Below, one piece after another: positions 23,378-29,900 of a stretch of 49,325 nt of DNA. Numbering within the stretch: the stretch's first letter is position 1; each line of letters opens with the position of its first letter. Position numbers and translations under genes: made by a program. The notes beneath the pieces were generated by a model. The model saw only the letters and a program-made list of their open reading frames with translations. It was not told the DNA's origin and did no database searches. The DNA comes from a virus (lineage: Duplodnaviria; Caudoviricetes): IMG/VR virus record IMGVR_UViG_3300044646_000320, positions 1 through 49,325 of that record. One strand, written 5' to 3'.

Positions 23378-23854
23378 ATGTTGGACCCAGTCAGTGCGAT
23401 AGCGCTCGCATCAAGCGCTTACAATGCCATCAAGAAGGGCATTGAAATTGGCCGTGAGCTTCAGGACATGGGTGGTCAGCTTTCCCAGTGGGCAAGCGCC
23501 ATCAGTGATATCGAGTTCCTTGAGAAGAAGGCTCAAGATCCTCCTTGGTACAAGTCTTTCGGAAGTAGTGCCCAAGCTGAGGCAATGGAGTTATTCGCAG
23601 CAAAGAAGAAAATTGAAGCACAACGTAACGAATTAAGAACTTACATTCAATTCAGTTACGGGCAAAGTGGATGGGAAGAGTTTCTTAGAATGGAAGCAGA
23701 TGTTCGTAAAAGAAGATCTGCTCATGAGCATAGGAAAGCTGAAATCAAAGAGACTATCATCAGTGTTGTTTTAATACTGCTGATGATGTCTTCTGTTGTA
23801 GGATTTCTGGCGTTCCTTGCGTTCCTCTACTACAAGGAAAGGGAGGGATACTGA
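23378..23854 (+). CDS. Hypothetical protein with a C-terminal transmembrane helix
   Basis: MLDPVSAIALASSAYNAIKKG...; TM IISVVLILLMMSSVVGFLAFLAFLYY. Confidence 0.7.
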   Translation: MLDPVSAIALASSAYNAIKKGIEIGRELQDMGGQLSQWASAISDIEFLEKKAQDPPWYKSFGSSAQAEAMELFAAKKKIEAQRNELRTYIQFSYGQSGWEEFLRMEADVRKRRSAHEHRKAEIKETIISVVLILLMMSSVVGFLAFLAFLYYKEREGY

Positions 23855-24090
23855 TGAAGAGGATGGTCAGACAGGCATGGGGCGTTATGACCTACGGCCC
23901 GTTCATTCTTCTTTTGATCGGCATGATCGGATTCATCATGCTGTTCAGACATGCTGGTGATGGTTTCTACAGATACCCATGCCAAGATCCTGCGCTGTGG
24001 AGCGATCCGCAGTGCAGAAAGCCAGCTTGCGATTCCACTGGAACTTGCACAGACTACCTCATCAACAGGGAGATGATCGATGAAGGTTGA
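23854..24090 (+). CDS. Membrane-anchored Cys-rich small protein
   Basis: One TM segment, then YRYPCQDP..W..PQC..P.C...GTC. Confidence 0.65.
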   Translation: MKRMVRQAWGVMTYGPFILLLIGMIGFIMLFRHAGDGFYRYPCQDPALWSDPQCRKPACDSTGTCTDYLINREMIDEG

Positions 24091-24355
24091 TGAATACGCC
24101 GACACTCTGGAAGCGAAGCTGCGTTTCTTCGTCGGCATCTGCCTTGCGCTCACGCTGACTGGAACGATCTTCGCTGTCTTGTACAGCCTGATCTTCGTTA
24201 CTCAACCGATGAACGGATCTGCACCGAACGACGAGAAGTTCTTCGAACTCATCCAGCCCATCGCTACGTTCCTGACTGGCACCCTATCTGGTATCATGCT
24301 TGCCAGTCGCAGGGGACAGGAAGCTCCACGGCCTCCCTCTGGTGACGATCAATGA
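24080..24355 (+). CDS. Two-TM membrane protein, holin candidate
   Basis: Two hydrophobic segments in 91 aa; upstream of the endolysin. Confidence 0.55.
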   Translation: MKVDEYADTLEAKLRFFVGICLALTLTGTIFAVLYSLIFVTQPMNGSAPNDEKFFELIQPIATFLTGTLSGIMLASRRGQEAPRPPSGDDQ

Positions 24356-24777
24356 TGCGCTTCTGGGCTCTATCTCTCTCAGCGGCTCTGTTGTTTGGCG
24401 GTCTTCCAGCCAGCGCTGAGGCCTACAAGATCAACCGCATCATAGATGGAGACACCGTCGAGATTGCGGTTGACTTCTTGCCAAAGCCTCTCCCACCGAA
24501 ACTGTCGATCAGAGTGCTTGGCGTCGATACACCAGAGAAAGCGCCTCGCGCTCTATGCGAGGCAGAGGCAAAGAAAGCGAAGGCTGCAAGCGAGTTCACC
24601 AAGTCTGCTGTTGCTGCCGCGAAGGAAATCGACATCCAGATCAAGACTTGGGACAAGTATGGAGGTCGGGTTCTTGGGTACGTCATTCTTGACGGCAAGA
24701 GTCTGACAGACATGTTGATCGAGAACGGTCATGCCAGACCATACGCTGGCGAGAAGAAGTCATCTTGGTGTGAATGA
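24352..24777 (+). CDS. Thermonuclease (SNase-like) with a Sec signal peptide
   Basis: IIDGDT, IRVLGVDTPE, DKYGGRVLG, LIENGHARPY; N-terminal MMRFWALSLSAALLFGGLPASA. Confidence 0.9.
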   Translation: MMRFWALSLSAALLFGGLPASAEAYKINRIIDGDTVEIAVDFLPKPLPPKLSIRVLGVDTPEKAPRALCEAEAKKAKAASEFTKSAVAAAKEIDIQIKTWDKYGGRVLGYVILDGKSLTDMLIENGHARPYAGEKKSSWCE

Positions 24778-24785
24778 GGGTTGCC

Positions 24786-25706
24786 ATGCCGCTGCTCACT
24801 GAATCTCAACTATCGAAGATGATCCCCACGAACAAGGAAGTTGCAGAGTGGTGCTCTGTTCTCAATGACATGCTTCCGAAGTACGAGATCACAACGCCTC
24901 GCAGGATTGCTTCCTTCATCAGTCAGTGCGCCCATGAAAGTGCTGACTTCAAGCTGCTAGAAGAGAACCTGAACTACAGGGAGGATACGCTCCTGAGGGT
25001 GTTCCCGAGATACTTCGGACCCGGCAAGGAGAATGCGGCGGAGTACGCCCGCAACCCGGAGAAGATCGCGAACTATGTCTACATGGACAGGAACAGGTCT
25101 GCTGCTGGTGCGCTTGGAAATACACAGCCCGGAGACGGCTGGAGATTTCGCGGCAGAGGGCTGAAGCAGGTTACAGGCAGGTCGAACTACACCAGCTTCG
25201 GGAAGGCCATTGGCAAAACCGCTGAGGAAGTCGCAGAGTATCTGGAGACGAAAGAGGGCGCTCTCGTATCTGCGCTGTGGTTCTGGCAGAGCCGGAACCT
25301 CAATGAGGTGGCTGACACTGGCGATGTAGCCCGTGTCACCAAGATCATCAACGGAGGCGATATCGGCCTCGAAGACAGGAGAAAGAGATATGCTCAAGTT
25401 CTTGCGGTCATTGATGGGTCGGACGCCACAGGGGATGATCGCGGAAGCGGTGGCGGGAGCGGTGGTGGACAAGGTCCAGAGCGCAGTGGAGGAGGCAGTC
25501 AAGGACAAGGTGGAGGATCTGAAGTACTCCGCGTTGGAAGCCGTGGTGAAAAAGTCGCGCGACTCCAAAGGGCGCTTCGCATCCAAGACGACGGCTCCTT
25601 CGGTCCAGCAACAGAGCGCGCCCTCCGCGAGTGGCAAAAAGCCCAAGGCTTGACGCCAGATGGCATAGCTGGGCCGAGGACTCTCGCAGTCCTGCTGAAG
25701 GAGTAG
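24786..25706 (+). CDS. Endolysin: GH19 catalytic domain plus C-terminal peptidoglycan-binding domain
   Basis: F.SQCAHES..F..LEENLNY, GDGWRFRGRGLKQVTGRSNY, TKIINGG..GL.DR; LR.GSRGE.V..LQ.AL....DG.FGP.T..A...WQ...GL.PDGIAGP.T. Confidence 0.92.
   Translation: MPLLTESQLSKMIPTNKEVAEWCSVLNDMLPKYEITTPRRIASFISQCAHESADFKLLEENLNYREDTLLRVFPRYFGPGKENAAEYARNPEKIANYVYMDRNRSAAGALGNTQPGDGWRFRGRGLKQVTGRSNYTSFGKAIGKTAEEVAEYLETKEGALVSALWFWQSRNLNEVADTGDVARVTKIINGGDIGLEDRRKRYAQVLAVIDGSDATGDDRGSGGGSGGGQGPERSGGGSQGQGGGSEVLRVGSRGEKVARLQRALRIQDDGSFGPATERALREWQKAQGLTPDGIAGPRTLAVLLKE
25390..25653 (+). CDS. Overprinted 87-aa gene in the +1 frame inside the endolysin
   Basis: AGGAG at 25377-25381, 8 nt before ATG 25390; MLKFLRSLMGRTPQGMIAEAVAGAVVDKVQSAVEEAVKDKVEDLKYSALEAVVKKSRDSKGRF... 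Confidence 0.6.
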   Translation: MLKFLRSLMGRTPQGMIAEAVAGAVVDKVQSAVEEAVKDKVEDLKYSALEAVVKKSRDSKGRFASKTTAPSVQQQSAPSASGKKPKA

Positions 25707-25744
25707 TTCAATAGAACTACTTCCTAGAATGTGTTTGCCGCGTC

Positions 25745-25765
25745 TGTTATGATGCGGCGCATCAT
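25745..25765 (+). promoter_or_regulatory. Extended -10 promoter candidate overlapped by a 7-bp inverted repeat
   Basis: TGTTATGAT at 25745-25753; ATGATGC-GGC-GCATCAT at 25749-25765. Confidence 0.45.
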
Positions 25766-25780
25766 GCTGTGGAGAGCGAT

Positions 25781-26920
25781 ATGCTTCCGATGCTTCTAAG
25801 CTTCTTGGGTGCCGGTGTTGCCAAGACTGGCGCTCTTGGTGCGTTCCTTGGATCGAATCCACTGATTGCCGCCTCGATTGGAGCTGGCCTCGGCAGGACG
25901 GCTGAAACAGGCAACCTCAGCGAAGGCATCAAGGCGGGGTTCGGATCGTTCGTCGGTGGCACCGCTCTCGGTGCTATCGGCAACGCTCTGGGTGGCGCTG
26001 GAGGGCAGGCTGCTGCAAGTCAGGCAGCAGAAGGTCTGGCTCCTTCCAGAGTCCCTGTCCCTCTCCCACGGCCAACTGCTGGCATGTCTATGCCTTCCAT
26101 TGGGAACGTCTTCCAAGGCGGCATGCAGTTCGGTCAGTCTGCTGCTGGCATTGGATCGACAGTCGGAAGCACGCTCGCTTCTCCGCAGACTCCTCCGAAA
26201 ACTTCAAAGCCATCGACAGGACCGATCCCCGACCTGTCTACCATCAGGCCAATGGAGCGCACACTGCGCAGCCCTCCTGCTGGCTACAGGCCGGGGTACG
26301 ATCCTGAGTTCGACTATGGGATGAGCAACCCATACACCTCCGAGTACTTCACCCGTCGCTATGCAAGCGGAGGAACTGTCCGCAAGCATGTTCCGGGTTA
26401 TGGGACGATCTACCTGCAAGCCGGAGGTATTGCAGACCTCGTTGCGGAACCTGAAGATGCTGTCGAGATCGAGCCCGAGGACGGAGAGTTCGAGATCGAA
26501 GAGTCCCGCACTGCTGGCGGCAATGAGAAGTCTGTCATTGTTGACGCTGTCATGGCGATCAAGAACATGCACCCGCAGCCAGAGGTTGCCCTTGCCACGT
26601 TCGTGCAGAACTATGGAGAGGAATCCCTGCGAGATCTCGTTGATCGAGTTCAGTCCGGTGAGTTCGACAAGACCATCGACAGGTTCTCCAGAGGAGAGAA
26701 AGGCGAGGTCCGTGGACCGGGCGACGGCTCTGGAACTGATGACATGGTTCCCGCCACCATTGACGGACAGCAGGATGTCCTCCTGAGCGATGGAGAGTTT
26801 GTCGTTCGCAAGGATTCAACGGACGCCCTTGAAGATGAGTTCGGATCAGGCTTCATGGACAGGATGAATGGTGCTGGTCCGAAAGCGCCCGAAGTCGTTC
26901 GAGAGATGGTGATGTCGTAG
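25781..26920 (+). CDS. Internal virion / ejection protein
   Basis: Gly/Ala-rich hydrophobic N-terminus; YASGG and LQAGG motifs; C-terminal GPGDG...DD.VPA.......LLSDGEFVV domain; GGAGAG RBS. Confidence 0.65.
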   Translation: MLPMLLSFLGAGVAKTGALGAFLGSNPLIAASIGAGLGRTAETGNLSEGIKAGFGSFVGGTALGAIGNALGGAGGQAAASQAAEGLAPSRVPVPLPRPTAGMSMPSIGNVFQGGMQFGQSAAGIGSTVGSTLASPQTPPKTSKPSTGPIPDLSTIRPMERTLRSPPAGYRPGYDPEFDYGMSNPYTSEYFTRRYASGGTVRKHVPGYGTIYLQAGGIADLVAEPEDAVEIEPEDGEFEIEESRTAGGNEKSVIVDAVMAIKNMHPQPEVALATFVQNYGEESLRDLVDRVQSGEFDKTIDRFSRGEKGEVRGPGDGSGTDDMVPATIDGQQDVLLSDGEFVVRKDSTDALEDEFGSGFMDRMNGAGPKAPEVVREMVMS

Positions 26921-27349
26921 ATGAGTGATGTGAAGGTCTTCGCTGTTCCAGTAGATCTTCTCGACGCAGTCTGGGGAGATGCGGCTCGCTGGCTGAAACC
27001 AGCGGTTGATAGATCCAACGGCAGAAGCTCTATCGGAGACACCTACTCTGACATCGAGTCTGGCAACAGCGTTCTGTGGATGGTCAGGAGGAGCGACGTT
27101 CCGGTTGGCTATTACACCACCAGAGTTGCCCAGTACCCCGGCTGCAAGGCAATGGTGTTGGACTGGATAGGCGGTTCTGGTATAGCATCGTGGATGAACG
27201 ACACCATTGAAGCGATGCGAAAGCATGCTGAACACAACAACTGCACCCACATCGAGTTCACTGGAAGAGAAGGTTGGGGCAGGCTTCTGAAGAACACTGG
27301 CTGGCAGCAAGAGTATGTCTGCTACAGGATGGAGTTGAAGGATGAGTAA
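26921..27349 (+). CDS. GNAT-fold-like virion assembly protein (T7 gp13 / P22 gp14 positional analogue)
   Basis: IGG.G...W......A....C..IE..GR.GW.R.L...GW pattern; lies among the ejection genes. Confidence 0.6.
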   Translation: MSDVKVFAVPVDLLDAVWGDAARWLKPAVDRSNGRSSIGDTYSDIESGNSVLWMVRRSDVPVGYYTTRVAQYPGCKAMVLDWIGGSGIASWMNDTIEAMRKHAEHNNCTHIEFTGREGWGRLLKNTGWQQEYVCYRMELKDE

Positions 27350-29900
27350 GGGCGGCGGAGCGCAGCAGGCAACGCAGACCACCGTTCAGGACGTTCCTGA
27401 ATGGGCGAAGCCTTACTACACCGACATCCTCCAGAAGGCGAAGGCTGCAAGTGAACAGCCCTACGTTCCTTATGAGGGGCCTCGTCTCGCCGAAACTCCA
27501 TACGACATCTCCACCTCTGAGGAGATGATTAGAGGCATTGCCGCCACCCCAACTCCCGGCCTCGCTGATGCCATGGGAACGATGAGCGGCCTTGGGCAGC
27601 AGGCGATGCAGCTCGGACAACAACAGCCGTCTCGATTCTACGAGTCGGGGTTCAGAGGGACGAACGTCTCTCCATATGCTGGGTTTCAGGAGGGCTTCGC
27701 TCGTCCGTACATGGGTTTCTCCCCCACCCTAGGAGAAGAGTACACGGGGTTCGAAGCTGGTGCTGCTCAGCCGTATGCTGGTTTCGAGCAGGCTCAGTTT
27801 GAACAGACCAGAGTTTCTCCCTATGCTGGCTTCAGGGGCACTCAGGTTTCCCCTTATGCCGACTTCAGCATGTACCAGCCGGAAGAGTACTCTACCTTTG
27901 CAGAGAGGGCAGTGTCTCCCTATGCAGGTTTCCAAGCTGGCCAAGCGACCCCTTACGCAGGCTTCGAGGCCTACCAGCCTGAACAGATTGCTTCGTTCAG
28001 GGAGCGTGAAGTCACTCCTTTTGCAGAGTTTCGGCAGGCTGGAGTAACTCCGTACTCTGAGTTCGAAGCGTATGCGCCTGAGCGCTTCACTGGGTTCGAG
28101 GCTGGAGCTGCCACGCCGTTCGCTGGGTTCGAGGAGAGGGGCGCTCAGGAGTTCCAGCTTGACCCATCTCGCCAGTTCACTGGTGCTGAGGTCGAGCAGT
28201 ACATGTCTCCCTACATGGAGAGCGTGGTCGCCCGTCAGGAAGAGGAAGCCATTCGTCAGGCTGAGCGTCAGCGCGCTGGTCGTGCTGCAAGCGCCATTGG
28301 TGCTGGTGCTTTCGGTGGATCTCGTCAGGCAGTTCAGGAGTCCCTCGCAGAGGAGGCGCTTGGTCGTCAGCTTGGAGACATCAGGGCCACTGGTCTTCAG
28401 GCTGCGTATGAACAGGCTGCTCGTCAGTTTGAGTCGGATCGTGCAGCTCAAGCTGCTCTTCAGCAGCAGCGCGTTGCTGAGGCGGCTCGGGTTCAGGGCA
28501 TCTCCACAGAAGAAGCGGCTCGCGTCCAGCAGGCTCGCGCTGCGGAACTCGCTCGCACTCAGGGCATCAGCATCGAAGAGGCAGCGAGGATTCAGCAGGC
28601 CAGAGCGGCAGAGGAAGCGAGATTCCAAGGGATGTCGGCAGAAGAAGCTGCTCGCATCCAGCAGTCAAGGGCAGCAGAACTCGCGAGGGTTCAAGGAATC
28701 GGTGTCGAAGAAGCTGCTCGTGTTCAACAGGCCAGAGCAGCTGAGCTGGCGAGGATTCAGGGCATCTCTGTTGATGAGGCTGCTCGCGTTGAAGCTGCTA
28801 CCGCCAATGAACTTGCTCGCTTCCAGCAGATGGAAGCTGGAGAGTTCGCTCGAATGCAGCAGTCTCAAGCGGCAGAGCTTGCTCGTGTGCAGGGTATCTC
28901 GATTGAAGAAGCCGCTCGTGTACAGCAGAGCAGGGCGGCAGAGCTTGCCAGAACTCAAGGCATCTCCGTCGATGAAGCTGCTCGGGTTCAGGCTGCAACG
29001 GCTGGAGAGAGGGCGCGCATCCAACAGATGGGTGCAAGTGAACTTGCCAGATTGCAGGAGTCTCAGGCCGCTGAGCTAGCCCGCATTCAGGGTATCTCTG
29101 TTGATGAAGCGGCAAGGGTTCAGCAGGCAAGAGCTGCCGAGATCGCTCGGGTTCAAGGCATCACGGTAGATGAAGCCGCCCGTGTTCAGGCTGCAAGGGC
29201 CTCTGAGGAAGCTCGTGTGCAGCAGTCCAGAGCTGCTGAGCTTGCAAGAACCCAAGGCATCAGCATCGATGAAGCTGCCCGCGTACAGGCCGCTACAGCC
29301 GCAGAGAGAGCCCGTCTTCAAGCGATGGACGCAGAGGAGTTCGCACGCGTTCAACAGTCTCAGGCGGCTGAACTGGCGCGTGTGCAGGGCATCTCCATCG
29401 ATGAAGCAGCAAGGGTCCAGCAACTGCAAGCGGCAGAGCTTGCTCGCGTTCAAGGGATTACCGTTGACGAGGCTGCGAGGGTTCAAGCGGCAAGGGCCAC
29501 TGAGGCTGCTCGCGTTCAGGAAGCCAGAGCCAATGAGGCGATGCGCCAGCGTCAGTTCCAGCTCGAAACCATGGGCTTCACGGCAGATCAGGCTCGCGGC
29601 ATAGCCGACCTCGGAGAGAGGGCGAGGGCCGGAGACATTCAGGCGGCACAGCTCCTTGAAGCTCAAGGCCTCGGACAGATGGCAAGAGAGCAGGCAGGGA
29701 TCGACATCGCCTATCAGGACTTCCTGCGTCAGCAGGGATACCCGATCTCCCAGCTCGGTGCCTACTCCCAGTTCATTCGTGGTCTTCCCGTGTCCGACGC
29801 GGGAACGGCAACGACATATATGCCGCAACCCAGCCCATTCCAGCAGGCTCTCGGCGCTGGTATCTCCGCATACGGTCTCTATAGGGGTCTTCAGGGATGA
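27342..29900 (+). CDS. Internal virion / DNA-ejection protein with two mirror-ordered repeat arrays
   Basis: MSKGGG..Q.T....VPEW.KPY N-terminus; YMSPY...GAFGGSR core; C-terminal PSPFQQALGAGI; two repeat arrays. Confidence 0.75.
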   Translation: MSKGGGAQQATQTTVQDVPEWAKPYYTDILQKAKAASEQPYVPYEGPRLAETPYDISTSEEMIRGIAATPTPGLADAMGTMSGLGQQAMQLGQQQPSRFYESGFRGTNVSPYAGFQEGFARPYMGFSPTLGEEYTGFEAGAAQPYAGFEQAQFEQTRVSPYAGFRGTQVSPYADFSMYQPEEYSTFAERAVSPYAGFQAGQATPYAGFEAYQPEQIASFREREVTPFAEFRQAGVTPYSEFEAYAPERFTGFEAGAATPFAGFEERGAQEFQLDPSRQFTGAEVEQYMSPYMESVVARQEEEAIRQAERQRAGRAASAIGAGAFGGSRQAVQESLAEEALGRQLGDIRATGLQAAYEQAARQFESDRAAQAALQQQRVAEAARVQGISTEEAARVQQARAAELARTQGISIEEAARIQQARAAEEARFQGMSAEEAARIQQSRAAELARVQGIGVEEAARVQQARAAELARIQGISVDEAARVEAATANELARFQQMEAGEFARMQQSQAAELARVQGISIEEAARVQQSRAAELARTQGISVDEAARVQAATAGERARIQQMGASELARLQESQAAELARIQGISVDEAARVQQARAAEIARVQGITVDEAARVQAARASEEARVQQSRAAELARTQGISIDEAARVQAATAAERARLQAMDAEEFARVQQSQAAELARVQGISIDEAARVQQLQAAELARVQGITVDEAARVQAARATEAARVQEARANEAMRQRQFQLETMGFTADQARGIADLGERARAGDIQAAQLLEAQGLGQMAREQAGIDIAYQDFLRQQGYPISQLGAYSQFIRGLPVSDAGTATTYMPQPSPFQQALGAGISAYGLYRGLQG
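27633..28172 (+). repeat. Coding tandem repeat A: 11-aa units (xxxP[YF]xxFxxx or xxEx[YFI]xxFxxx) with 5-aa half units
   Basis: aa 98-277 of the 852-aa protein, parsed by hand; 33-nt period. Confidence 0.9.
28461..29549 (+). repeat. Coding tandem repeat B: 22-aa units (QQ.RAAELARV-QGIS.DEAARV) with 11-aa half units
   Basis: aa 374-736, strict 11-residue period, helical composition. Confidence 0.95.

Follow-up and report, generated by a model that had tools for sequence, protein, structure and literature searches.

In the window analysed here, which is the whole of a 49,325-nt virus record with an estimated completeness of 83%, the endolysin gene carries a second gene in the +1 frame, hidden across the linker between its two domains. 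Comparison of related sequences confirmed that this ORF is under selection as a protein, and it is almost certainly a real, translated gene. Sister phages carry a small standalone gene just upstream in the same lysis cassette, and the hidden ORF very likely replaces it. On this sequence evidence, the hidden gene would most likely be a relocated or rebuilt lysis-cassette gene, the same function having been moved inside a neighbour.

Portal, major capsid, tail and primase/helicase genes are all present in the window. The endolysin (24786..25706, + strand; 306 aa, P0010) combines in one open frame a GH19-type catalytic domain, a 36-aa Gly-rich linker and a C-terminal PG_binding_1 domain (25545..25694, + strand). 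It matches phrog_181 across aa 3-209 (E 4.9e-74). The match of the binding domain to Pfam PF01471 is above the cut-off (E 1.9e-13), whereas that of the catalytic part to Pfam GH19 (PF00182; E 2.4e-4) falls below it. No signal peptide or SAR-like start is evident in the endolysin sequence. Upstream, on the same strand, a three-gene module begins with TMcys (23854..24090), a membrane protein that is bitopic and has four Cys in its C-terminal domain; a lipobox is absent from every TMcys homolog among the matches listed. It is followed by a two-TM protein, 2TM (24080..24355; phrog_25359, unknown function), a holin candidate on the basis of position and topology. The 2TM gene directly adjoins, at junction 24352..24355 (+ strand), a gene for an SNase-family protein with a hydrophobic N-terminus (24352..24777, + strand; PF00565, E 5.9e-11); in sister phages this junction is the site of the standalone 58-77-aa gene. 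The SNase-family gene is an optional member of the cassette, found at 8 clade and 43 outgroup loci as defined below (51/81), and its product, which has a signal-peptide-like start, is possibly an exported nuclease. TMcys and 2TM constitute a tightly conserved, unannotated pair adjoining the endolysin (23854-24355 in the window; L012-L080 in the outgroup), possibly a holin with a periplasmic regulator, or an unusual spanin-like part. Elsewhere in the window, a GroES co-chaperonin homolog directly follows the portal gene (2356-2724; phrog_3188, E 9e-12), and the 852-aa product of 27342-29900, probably an internal virion protein, contains extended near-tandem repeats (ARVQ..RAAELAR..GIS units). 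A 301-aa antisense ORF across the endolysin (24957-25862, - strand) was rejected as a gene: it contains stops in 7/10 distinct relatives, is open in 3/10 over the aligned part and is probably due to chance.

The hidden gene (25390..25653, + strand) runs from ATG 25390 to TGA 25651-25653 and encodes 87 aa with a net charge of +7. A Shine-Dalgarno (SD) sequence, AGGAG (25377..25381, + strand), is formed by endolysin Asp-Arg-Arg codons and is separated from the ATG by an 8-nt spacer. Codons 1-10 (25390..25419) are dual coding: the N-terminal helix that they specify, which is cationic and amphipathic, lies over the codons for the last GH19-domain helix. Codons 11-45 (25420..25524) encode an amphipathic helical core where the endolysin frame yields a near-neutral linker, and codons 46-87 (25525..25653) overlap the PG-binding domain, where the endolysin frame is dominant. 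In the window protein, residues 1-12 have a hydrophobic moment of 0.55 and a net charge of +3. Across 16 hidden-family members, 83-87 aa in length, the N-terminal hydrophobic moment is 0.53-0.64 and the net charge +2 to +8; their conserved central part (aa 13-56) carries a net negative charge (-2 to -4), and for some the overall charge is only +2 or +3. Cys is absent from 16/16 members, so the protein has no lipobox and differs in this from an o-spanin of the Rz1 type. The best 19-residue Kyte-Doolittle hydropathy is 1.07 in the window protein and 0.69-1.07 across members, so there is no TM helix of the kind found in an i-spanin or a holin such as hol187. AlphaFold models are helical but of low confidence (pLDDT 53 and 58). 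The original prediction, made from the window sequence, thus had the SD, its spacing, the frame and the coordinates right, as well as the linker string, the lack of a lipobox or TM helix and the integrity of both endolysin domains. The basic end RDSKGRF to which it drew attention, in contrast, is private to the window and is not conserved.

When endolysin codons were resampled synonymously with the protein held fixed, the +1 frame stayed open in 12-40% of draws, and an open frame together with ATG and AGGAG arose in ~1%. Over the PG-binding part, +1 stops are also missing from 15/55 distinct outgroup genes. Because resampling leaves the +1 frame open so often, the evidence from one sequence is weak and the case for the gene rests on comparative data. 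An endolysin scan returned 418 relatives, of which the best 80 were kept; 12 of these and the window make up a clade (13 loci), and the other 68 served as outgroup. In this set, SD, 8-nt spacer and ATG occur at the identical place in 13/13 clade loci and 0/68 outgroup loci. The 12 full-length clade loci all have the open 87-codon frame (L034 is interrupted by a contig end), while the longest +1 run from the same site in the 68 outgroup loci is 70 codons. A conserved open +1 frame and SD in homologous GH19 genes, which had been proposed as a check, are therefore found within the clade. The SD/ATG signal is retained at three further loci (L085, L095 and L096, the last encoding 83 aa), one of which has a 12-nt deletion, and AGGAG at the hidden-gene site was found in 0/120 endolysins adjoining a standalone gene. 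The metagenome scan took in 12/64 parts. From protein sequences alone, we also recognized 22 endolysin clusters with a long linker, of lengths 305, 301 and 297 (with one 269-aa partial); the length steps correspond to one 4-residue repeat of the hidden protein.

Diversity and pN/pS were calculated from 10 distinct clade genes (72-88% nucleotide identity). Within the GH19 domain, diversity at endolysin codon positions 1/2/3 is 0.06-0.13/0.05-0.11/0.39-0.50; over ORF codons 1-45 it becomes 0.30/0.15/0.03, the wobble having shifted by one base. Endolysin third-position diversity drops to 0.030 over these codons, compared to 0.39-0.56 outside the overlap, and is 0.036 over codons 1-10. The +1 frame has a pN/pS of 0.25 [0.15-0.38] over codons 1-45 and 0.21 [0.13-0.32] over codons 11-45, as against 6.6 and 7.6 in the endolysin frame (intervals from codon resampling, which ignores kinship). 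For codons 11-45, the +1 frame retains 83% amino acid identity, compared to 58% for the endolysin frame. As had been suspected from the odd composition of the linker, selection acts here on the +1 frame, and the low +1 and high endolysin values mark the Gly-rich linker as a by-product. An alternative is that the stretch is an RNA or DNA element without translation, or that a frameshift into it gives the endolysin a different C-terminus. Upstream of the ATG the +1 frame stays open for 21-76 codons, which makes a frameshift fusion formally possible, but the constraint starts at the SD/ATG and not upstream of it. Moreover, changes fall at +1 synonymous positions and amino acid swaps are conservative, SD spacing is fixed, indels are whole 4-codon repeats, and RNA folds near the start are not above those of shuffles (z -0.67 to 0.88). 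We regard an untranslated or frameshifted role as highly improbable.

Over codons 46-87 the balance is reversed, with pN/pS of 0.42 in the endolysin frame and 1.5 in the +1 frame, so that purifying selection on the hidden protein is detected for codons 1-45 and not for this tail. Synonymous choices nevertheless fix Glu-Ala-Val at hidden-protein residues 50-52. In clade genes, endolysin K/Q/E codons end in A rather than G at a ratio of 71:17 in the overlap versus 43:158 in the GH19 part; the same region of the outgroup gives 93:395. The skew is visible in the window alone (7:2 in the overlap versus 3:15, p 0.004). Neither the A-ending nor the G-ending codons make a +1 stop, and the skew yields 6-8 Lys in the +1 frame compared to 1.35 on average. 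A synonymous skew under a dominant endolysin frame indicates that the tail is shaped for composition and not for exact sequence.

Clustering of ORFs neighbouring endolysins identified the standalone family. A gene for an amphipathic basic protein of 58-77 aa lies between the holin candidate and the endolysin at 64/68 outgroup loci and at 0/13 clade loci. Two of the four outgroup exceptions are without upstream DNA. The other two (L046, L057) lack TMcys, 2TM and the small gene, and a GTA_holin_3TM-type module stands in place of the whole block, as it does in L412. A search with the standalone family gave a redundant set of 153 loci, in which TMcys and 2TM precede the gene at 141/141 loci with sufficient upstream DNA, a GH19 endolysin follows it at 131/131 loci, and the hidden ORF is present at 0/131 loci with sufficient downstream DNA. 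In a second endolysin scan, whose loci overlap those of the first, 74 loci could be scored: 67 had the standalone gene, 7 had neither form and none had the hidden gene. No standalone gene was found elsewhere in the window or in three other records, G001, G002 and G004 (53-88% complete); G003 is without DNA upstream of the endolysin and carries no weight as a negative. A cassette of TMcys, 2TM and GH19 genes thus has a single form of the small gene.

The standalone family is large (909 clusters at E<=1); none of the 120 matches listed has a Pfam domain, and in family searches the standalone protein matched unnamed viral clusters only. One contig with a standalone gene falls in the bin of a MAG labelled Aestuariivirga, and the family is carried by no cultured phage. 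At 10 loci (L012, L017, L021, L022, L025, L050, L054, L055, L059 and L071) an extra gene of ~75 aa (cluster c42) lies between the 2TM and standalone genes. Genome G005 (L337, 10543-11653) encodes an EF-hand-like 2TM protein and a GTA_holin_3TM-type holin alongside the three-gene module, where L046, L057 and L412 have the swap instead. By eye only, the N-termini of GTA_holin_3TM-type holins resemble both the standalone and the hidden proteins. The idea that the standalone gene is a split N-terminus of the GTA holin is not supported, as there is no Pfam match and both are present together in G005.

Hidden and standalone proteins share a colinear layout. In both, the N-terminus is cationic and amphipathic and closes with Gly-Arg/Lys, the middle is amphipathic and acidic to neutral, and the tail is rich in Lys. 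Net charges are +2 to +8 in the 16 hidden members and +1 to +7 in 26 standalone members. When the window was cut into 1058 six-frame segments, the best match to an HMM of the standalone family was the hidden ORF, but weakly (E 0.055; next 2.1), and in the clade loci hidden ORFs took ranks 1-14 of 1592. In the reverse search, a standalone protein came top among 9244, with standalone matches and outgroup endolysin +1 frames interspersed. Pairwise local scores between the two forms exceeded shuffles at z 4.1-7.5 and were above reversed controls in 10/10 cases; since reversed controls also beat shuffles, helix periodicity explains part of this signal. Alignment of the two profiles with hhalign was weak, giving a probability of 17% and E 0.0015 over 19 columns. 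A hidden-family profile did not retrieve the standalone family from 1.84 billion protein representatives, the matches there being 2 clade members and 2 tandem-repeat artefacts. Likewise, no true standalone homolog of the hidden protein was found among proteins of 47-153 aa; 7 clusters were recovered, all from the same clade. The hidden protein has no meaningful match in Pfam, PHROGs or NCBIfam and no usable match in the ESM Atlas. From two forms that never co-occur and have colinear sequences, we strongly infer that the hidden protein does the job of the standalone gene, and functional equivalence of the two appears likely. For the middle part of the hidden protein, the sequences lean towards descent from the standalone gene and away from convergence.

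Quick trees of the GH19 domain only, with the overlap excluded, placed the hidden group as one clade (support 97-99) nested among standalone carriers. A tree uniting the standalone carriers was rejected (p-AU 0.024, 29 rows), a result that module recombination could blur. The last GH19 helix and the PG-binding domain of the endolysin still align with outgroups, so that endolysin DNA must have been the source of the SD, of codons 1-10 and of the tail. The DNA of the 36-aa linker, in contrast, resembles standalone genes (z 2.9-8.9 in 9/10 cases) and not outgroup linkers, although protein likeness alone would produce that. In the route that we propose, a stretch like the middle of the standalone gene would have come, in one lineage, into the tolerant endolysin linker in the +1 frame; the N-terminal helix and basic tail would then have been rebuilt from endolysin codons by synonymous changes, and the free standalone copy would have been lost. 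Other endolysin linkers have peculiarities of their own. Many outgroup linkers, those of L013, L019, L024, L028, L030, L031, L038, L043-L046, L068, L070 and L073, have in common a short motif around QITDAVTQ of a kind known from RebB (R-body) proteins; Pfam gave no RebB match. More distant GH19/PG-binding endolysins (P0034, P0035, P0038; L282-L296) have very acidic, Asp-rich linkers, with a +1 ORF of 48-57 codons at 10 loci (cluster 14).

A possible function of the hidden protein is suggested by its cassette. A lipobox scan that recovers 19/21 control o-spanins found no cassette lipoprotein in the window (83% complete), in G001 (88%) or in the complete standalone-type genomes G005, G009 and G010. 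The only credible lipoprotein in the genomes scanned is a VG64-family protein of G009 (L346, 778-1182; PF25682, E 1e-54), which lies outside the lysis cassette. Downstream of distant endolysin homologs, canonical i- and o-spanins are found at 27 and 26 of 76 loci, respectively, and the small gene is missing there; this fits a Gram-negative host and the need for an outer-membrane step. A precedent is the disruptin gp28 of phage phiKT, a 56-aa protein of charge +7 with a predicted amphipathic helix, encoded between endolysin and holin in a spanin-less genome, which performs the outer-membrane step (Holt et al., 10.1101/515445). The hidden protein is likewise small, basic (+7) and amphipathic, has no TM helix or lipobox and is encoded in the lysis cassette, and the standalone gene shares the position between endolysin and holin candidate. 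It differs in being longer (83-87 aa), embedded out of frame and acidic in its middle, which is unlike a typical cationic peptide; the likeness to gp28 is one of features. Proteins of the disruptin type are described as hard to predict (PMC12819732). That no cassette spanin was found in these records, together with a size, charge and cassette position resembling those of gp28, favours a disruptin-like role, and we consider it plausible, at somewhat under even chances, that the hidden protein is a membrane-binding lysis factor that disrupts the outer membrane in place of spanins. The internal SD on the late lysis mRNA would recruit ribosomes, so that the small protein is made alongside the endolysin; its cationic amphipathic N-terminus and Lys-rich tail would bind and destabilize the envelope, a step that would follow release of the endolysin by the 2TM holin, as with gp28. 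Counting against this reading, G006 and G007 have no standalone gene, hidden gene or detected spanin (records 67-72% complete).

Loss of the standalone gene along with TMcys and 2TM (L046, L057, L412) points to a partnership with the holin module, and the hidden protein could be a genuine replacement of the standalone one that acts at the cytoplasmic face as a co-factor or timing regulator of the 2TM holin within a TMcys-2TM-small module, much like T/RI/RIII in T4. The Lcc6 protein of LambdaSo offers a precedent for an extra holin-level factor (10.1101/2024.01.23.576932). The invariable place of the standalone gene behind TMcys and 2TM and the replacement of all three genes as a block by a GTA_holin_3TM-type module agree with such a role, and an acidic middle suits protein contact. 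However, a GTA-type holin and the standalone gene occur together in G005 and at 2/74 loci, so that the swap is not one-for-one, and these phages would be left without an identified outer-membrane step; we rate a holin co-factor as the main rival, though unlikely. Another possibility is that the product attaches to the endolysin and inhibits, chaperones or carries it, with nesting setting the ratio of the two. The constant GH19 neighbour of the standalone gene and the coding of the hidden form inside the endolysin would agree with this, but the same type of endolysin occurs without either form (L046, L057, L412 and the 76 distant loci), and the basic amphipathic ends appear membrane-directed, which makes an endolysin partner very unlikely. 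Barely more probable is a role outside lysis, for instance as a minor component of the virion or a late DNA-binding protein whose gene just happens to lie in the operon. Structural genes surround the cassette, which also accommodates a nuclease-like passenger, and Lys-rich tails also bind DNA; the fixed place between holin candidate and endolysin, and the loss as a block with membrane genes, speak against it. The original prediction had called the product a new lysis accessory. The lysis role is supported by mutual exclusion with, and resemblance to, a standalone cassette gene, but rather than being wholly new, the protein more probably belongs to a large unannotated family, of which it would be a relocated or rebuilt member. 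The disruptin-like role and the proposed route can be joined into a larger claim, namely that the core moved into the linker, that synonymous sites of the endolysin supplied a new start signal, N-terminal helix and Lys-rich tail, and that the family, whose unannotated clusters in aquatic phages number in the hundreds, represents a new and widespread class of spanin-replacing outer-membrane disruptors; we put this forward only tentatively.

Genes embedded in endolysin genes have precedents, among them hol15 within lys16 of phage P68. In Staphylococcus phage 187, hol187 is embedded out of frame in ply187 (Loessner 1999, cited in PMC3615230). Both are holin-like genes of Gram-positive phages, whereas the hidden protein has no TM helix, accompanies a separate 2TM holin candidate and has a standalone counterpart in sister phages. 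Rz/Rz1 spanins also include +1 nested genes in the lysis cassette and exist in separated and nested architectures, but the hidden protein lacks a lipobox, Cys and TM helix, and it is the endolysin gene that hosts it. Among the spanins examined by Kongari et al. 2018 (PMC6139136), no family came in both the embedded and the separated form; here both states are present in sister lineages, for a different lysis-cassette gene. Second endolysin products made in frame from internal starts are known (Pinto et al. 2022, PMC9430671; also Ms6 lysA). They share with the hidden gene an internal SD and start near the boundary of catalytic and binding domains, but consist of the binding domain again, while the hidden product is out of frame and an unrelated protein. 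In Hepatitis B virus, the polymerase spacer overlaps the surface gene (Pavesi 2021, PMC8227390), so that there too an inter-domain linker in one frame hosts a selected protein in the other; this is an animal virus with unrelated proteins, and the analogy is one of gene layout only. In the literature covered, mostly open papers, we found no report of the standalone family or of the nested arrangement.

An out-of-frame gene inside an endolysin is thus already known, and what is newly described is its relation to a standalone counterpart in sister phages. Overprinted genes are usually described as new proteins, but this hidden gene appears to recreate an existing neighbour. If the replacement reading is true, the transition from a separated to an embedded gene has been caught with both states alive, so that the stages before and after nesting can be compared directly; for embedded spanins, Kongari et al. 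could do no more than argue for such a step. Annotation, and any recoding of a modular endolysin, should take into account that its Gly/Ser/Asp/Arg-rich 'linker' can harbour a hidden gene. Finally, the hidden and standalone proteins provide a candidate family for how phages without spanins may breach the outer membrane.
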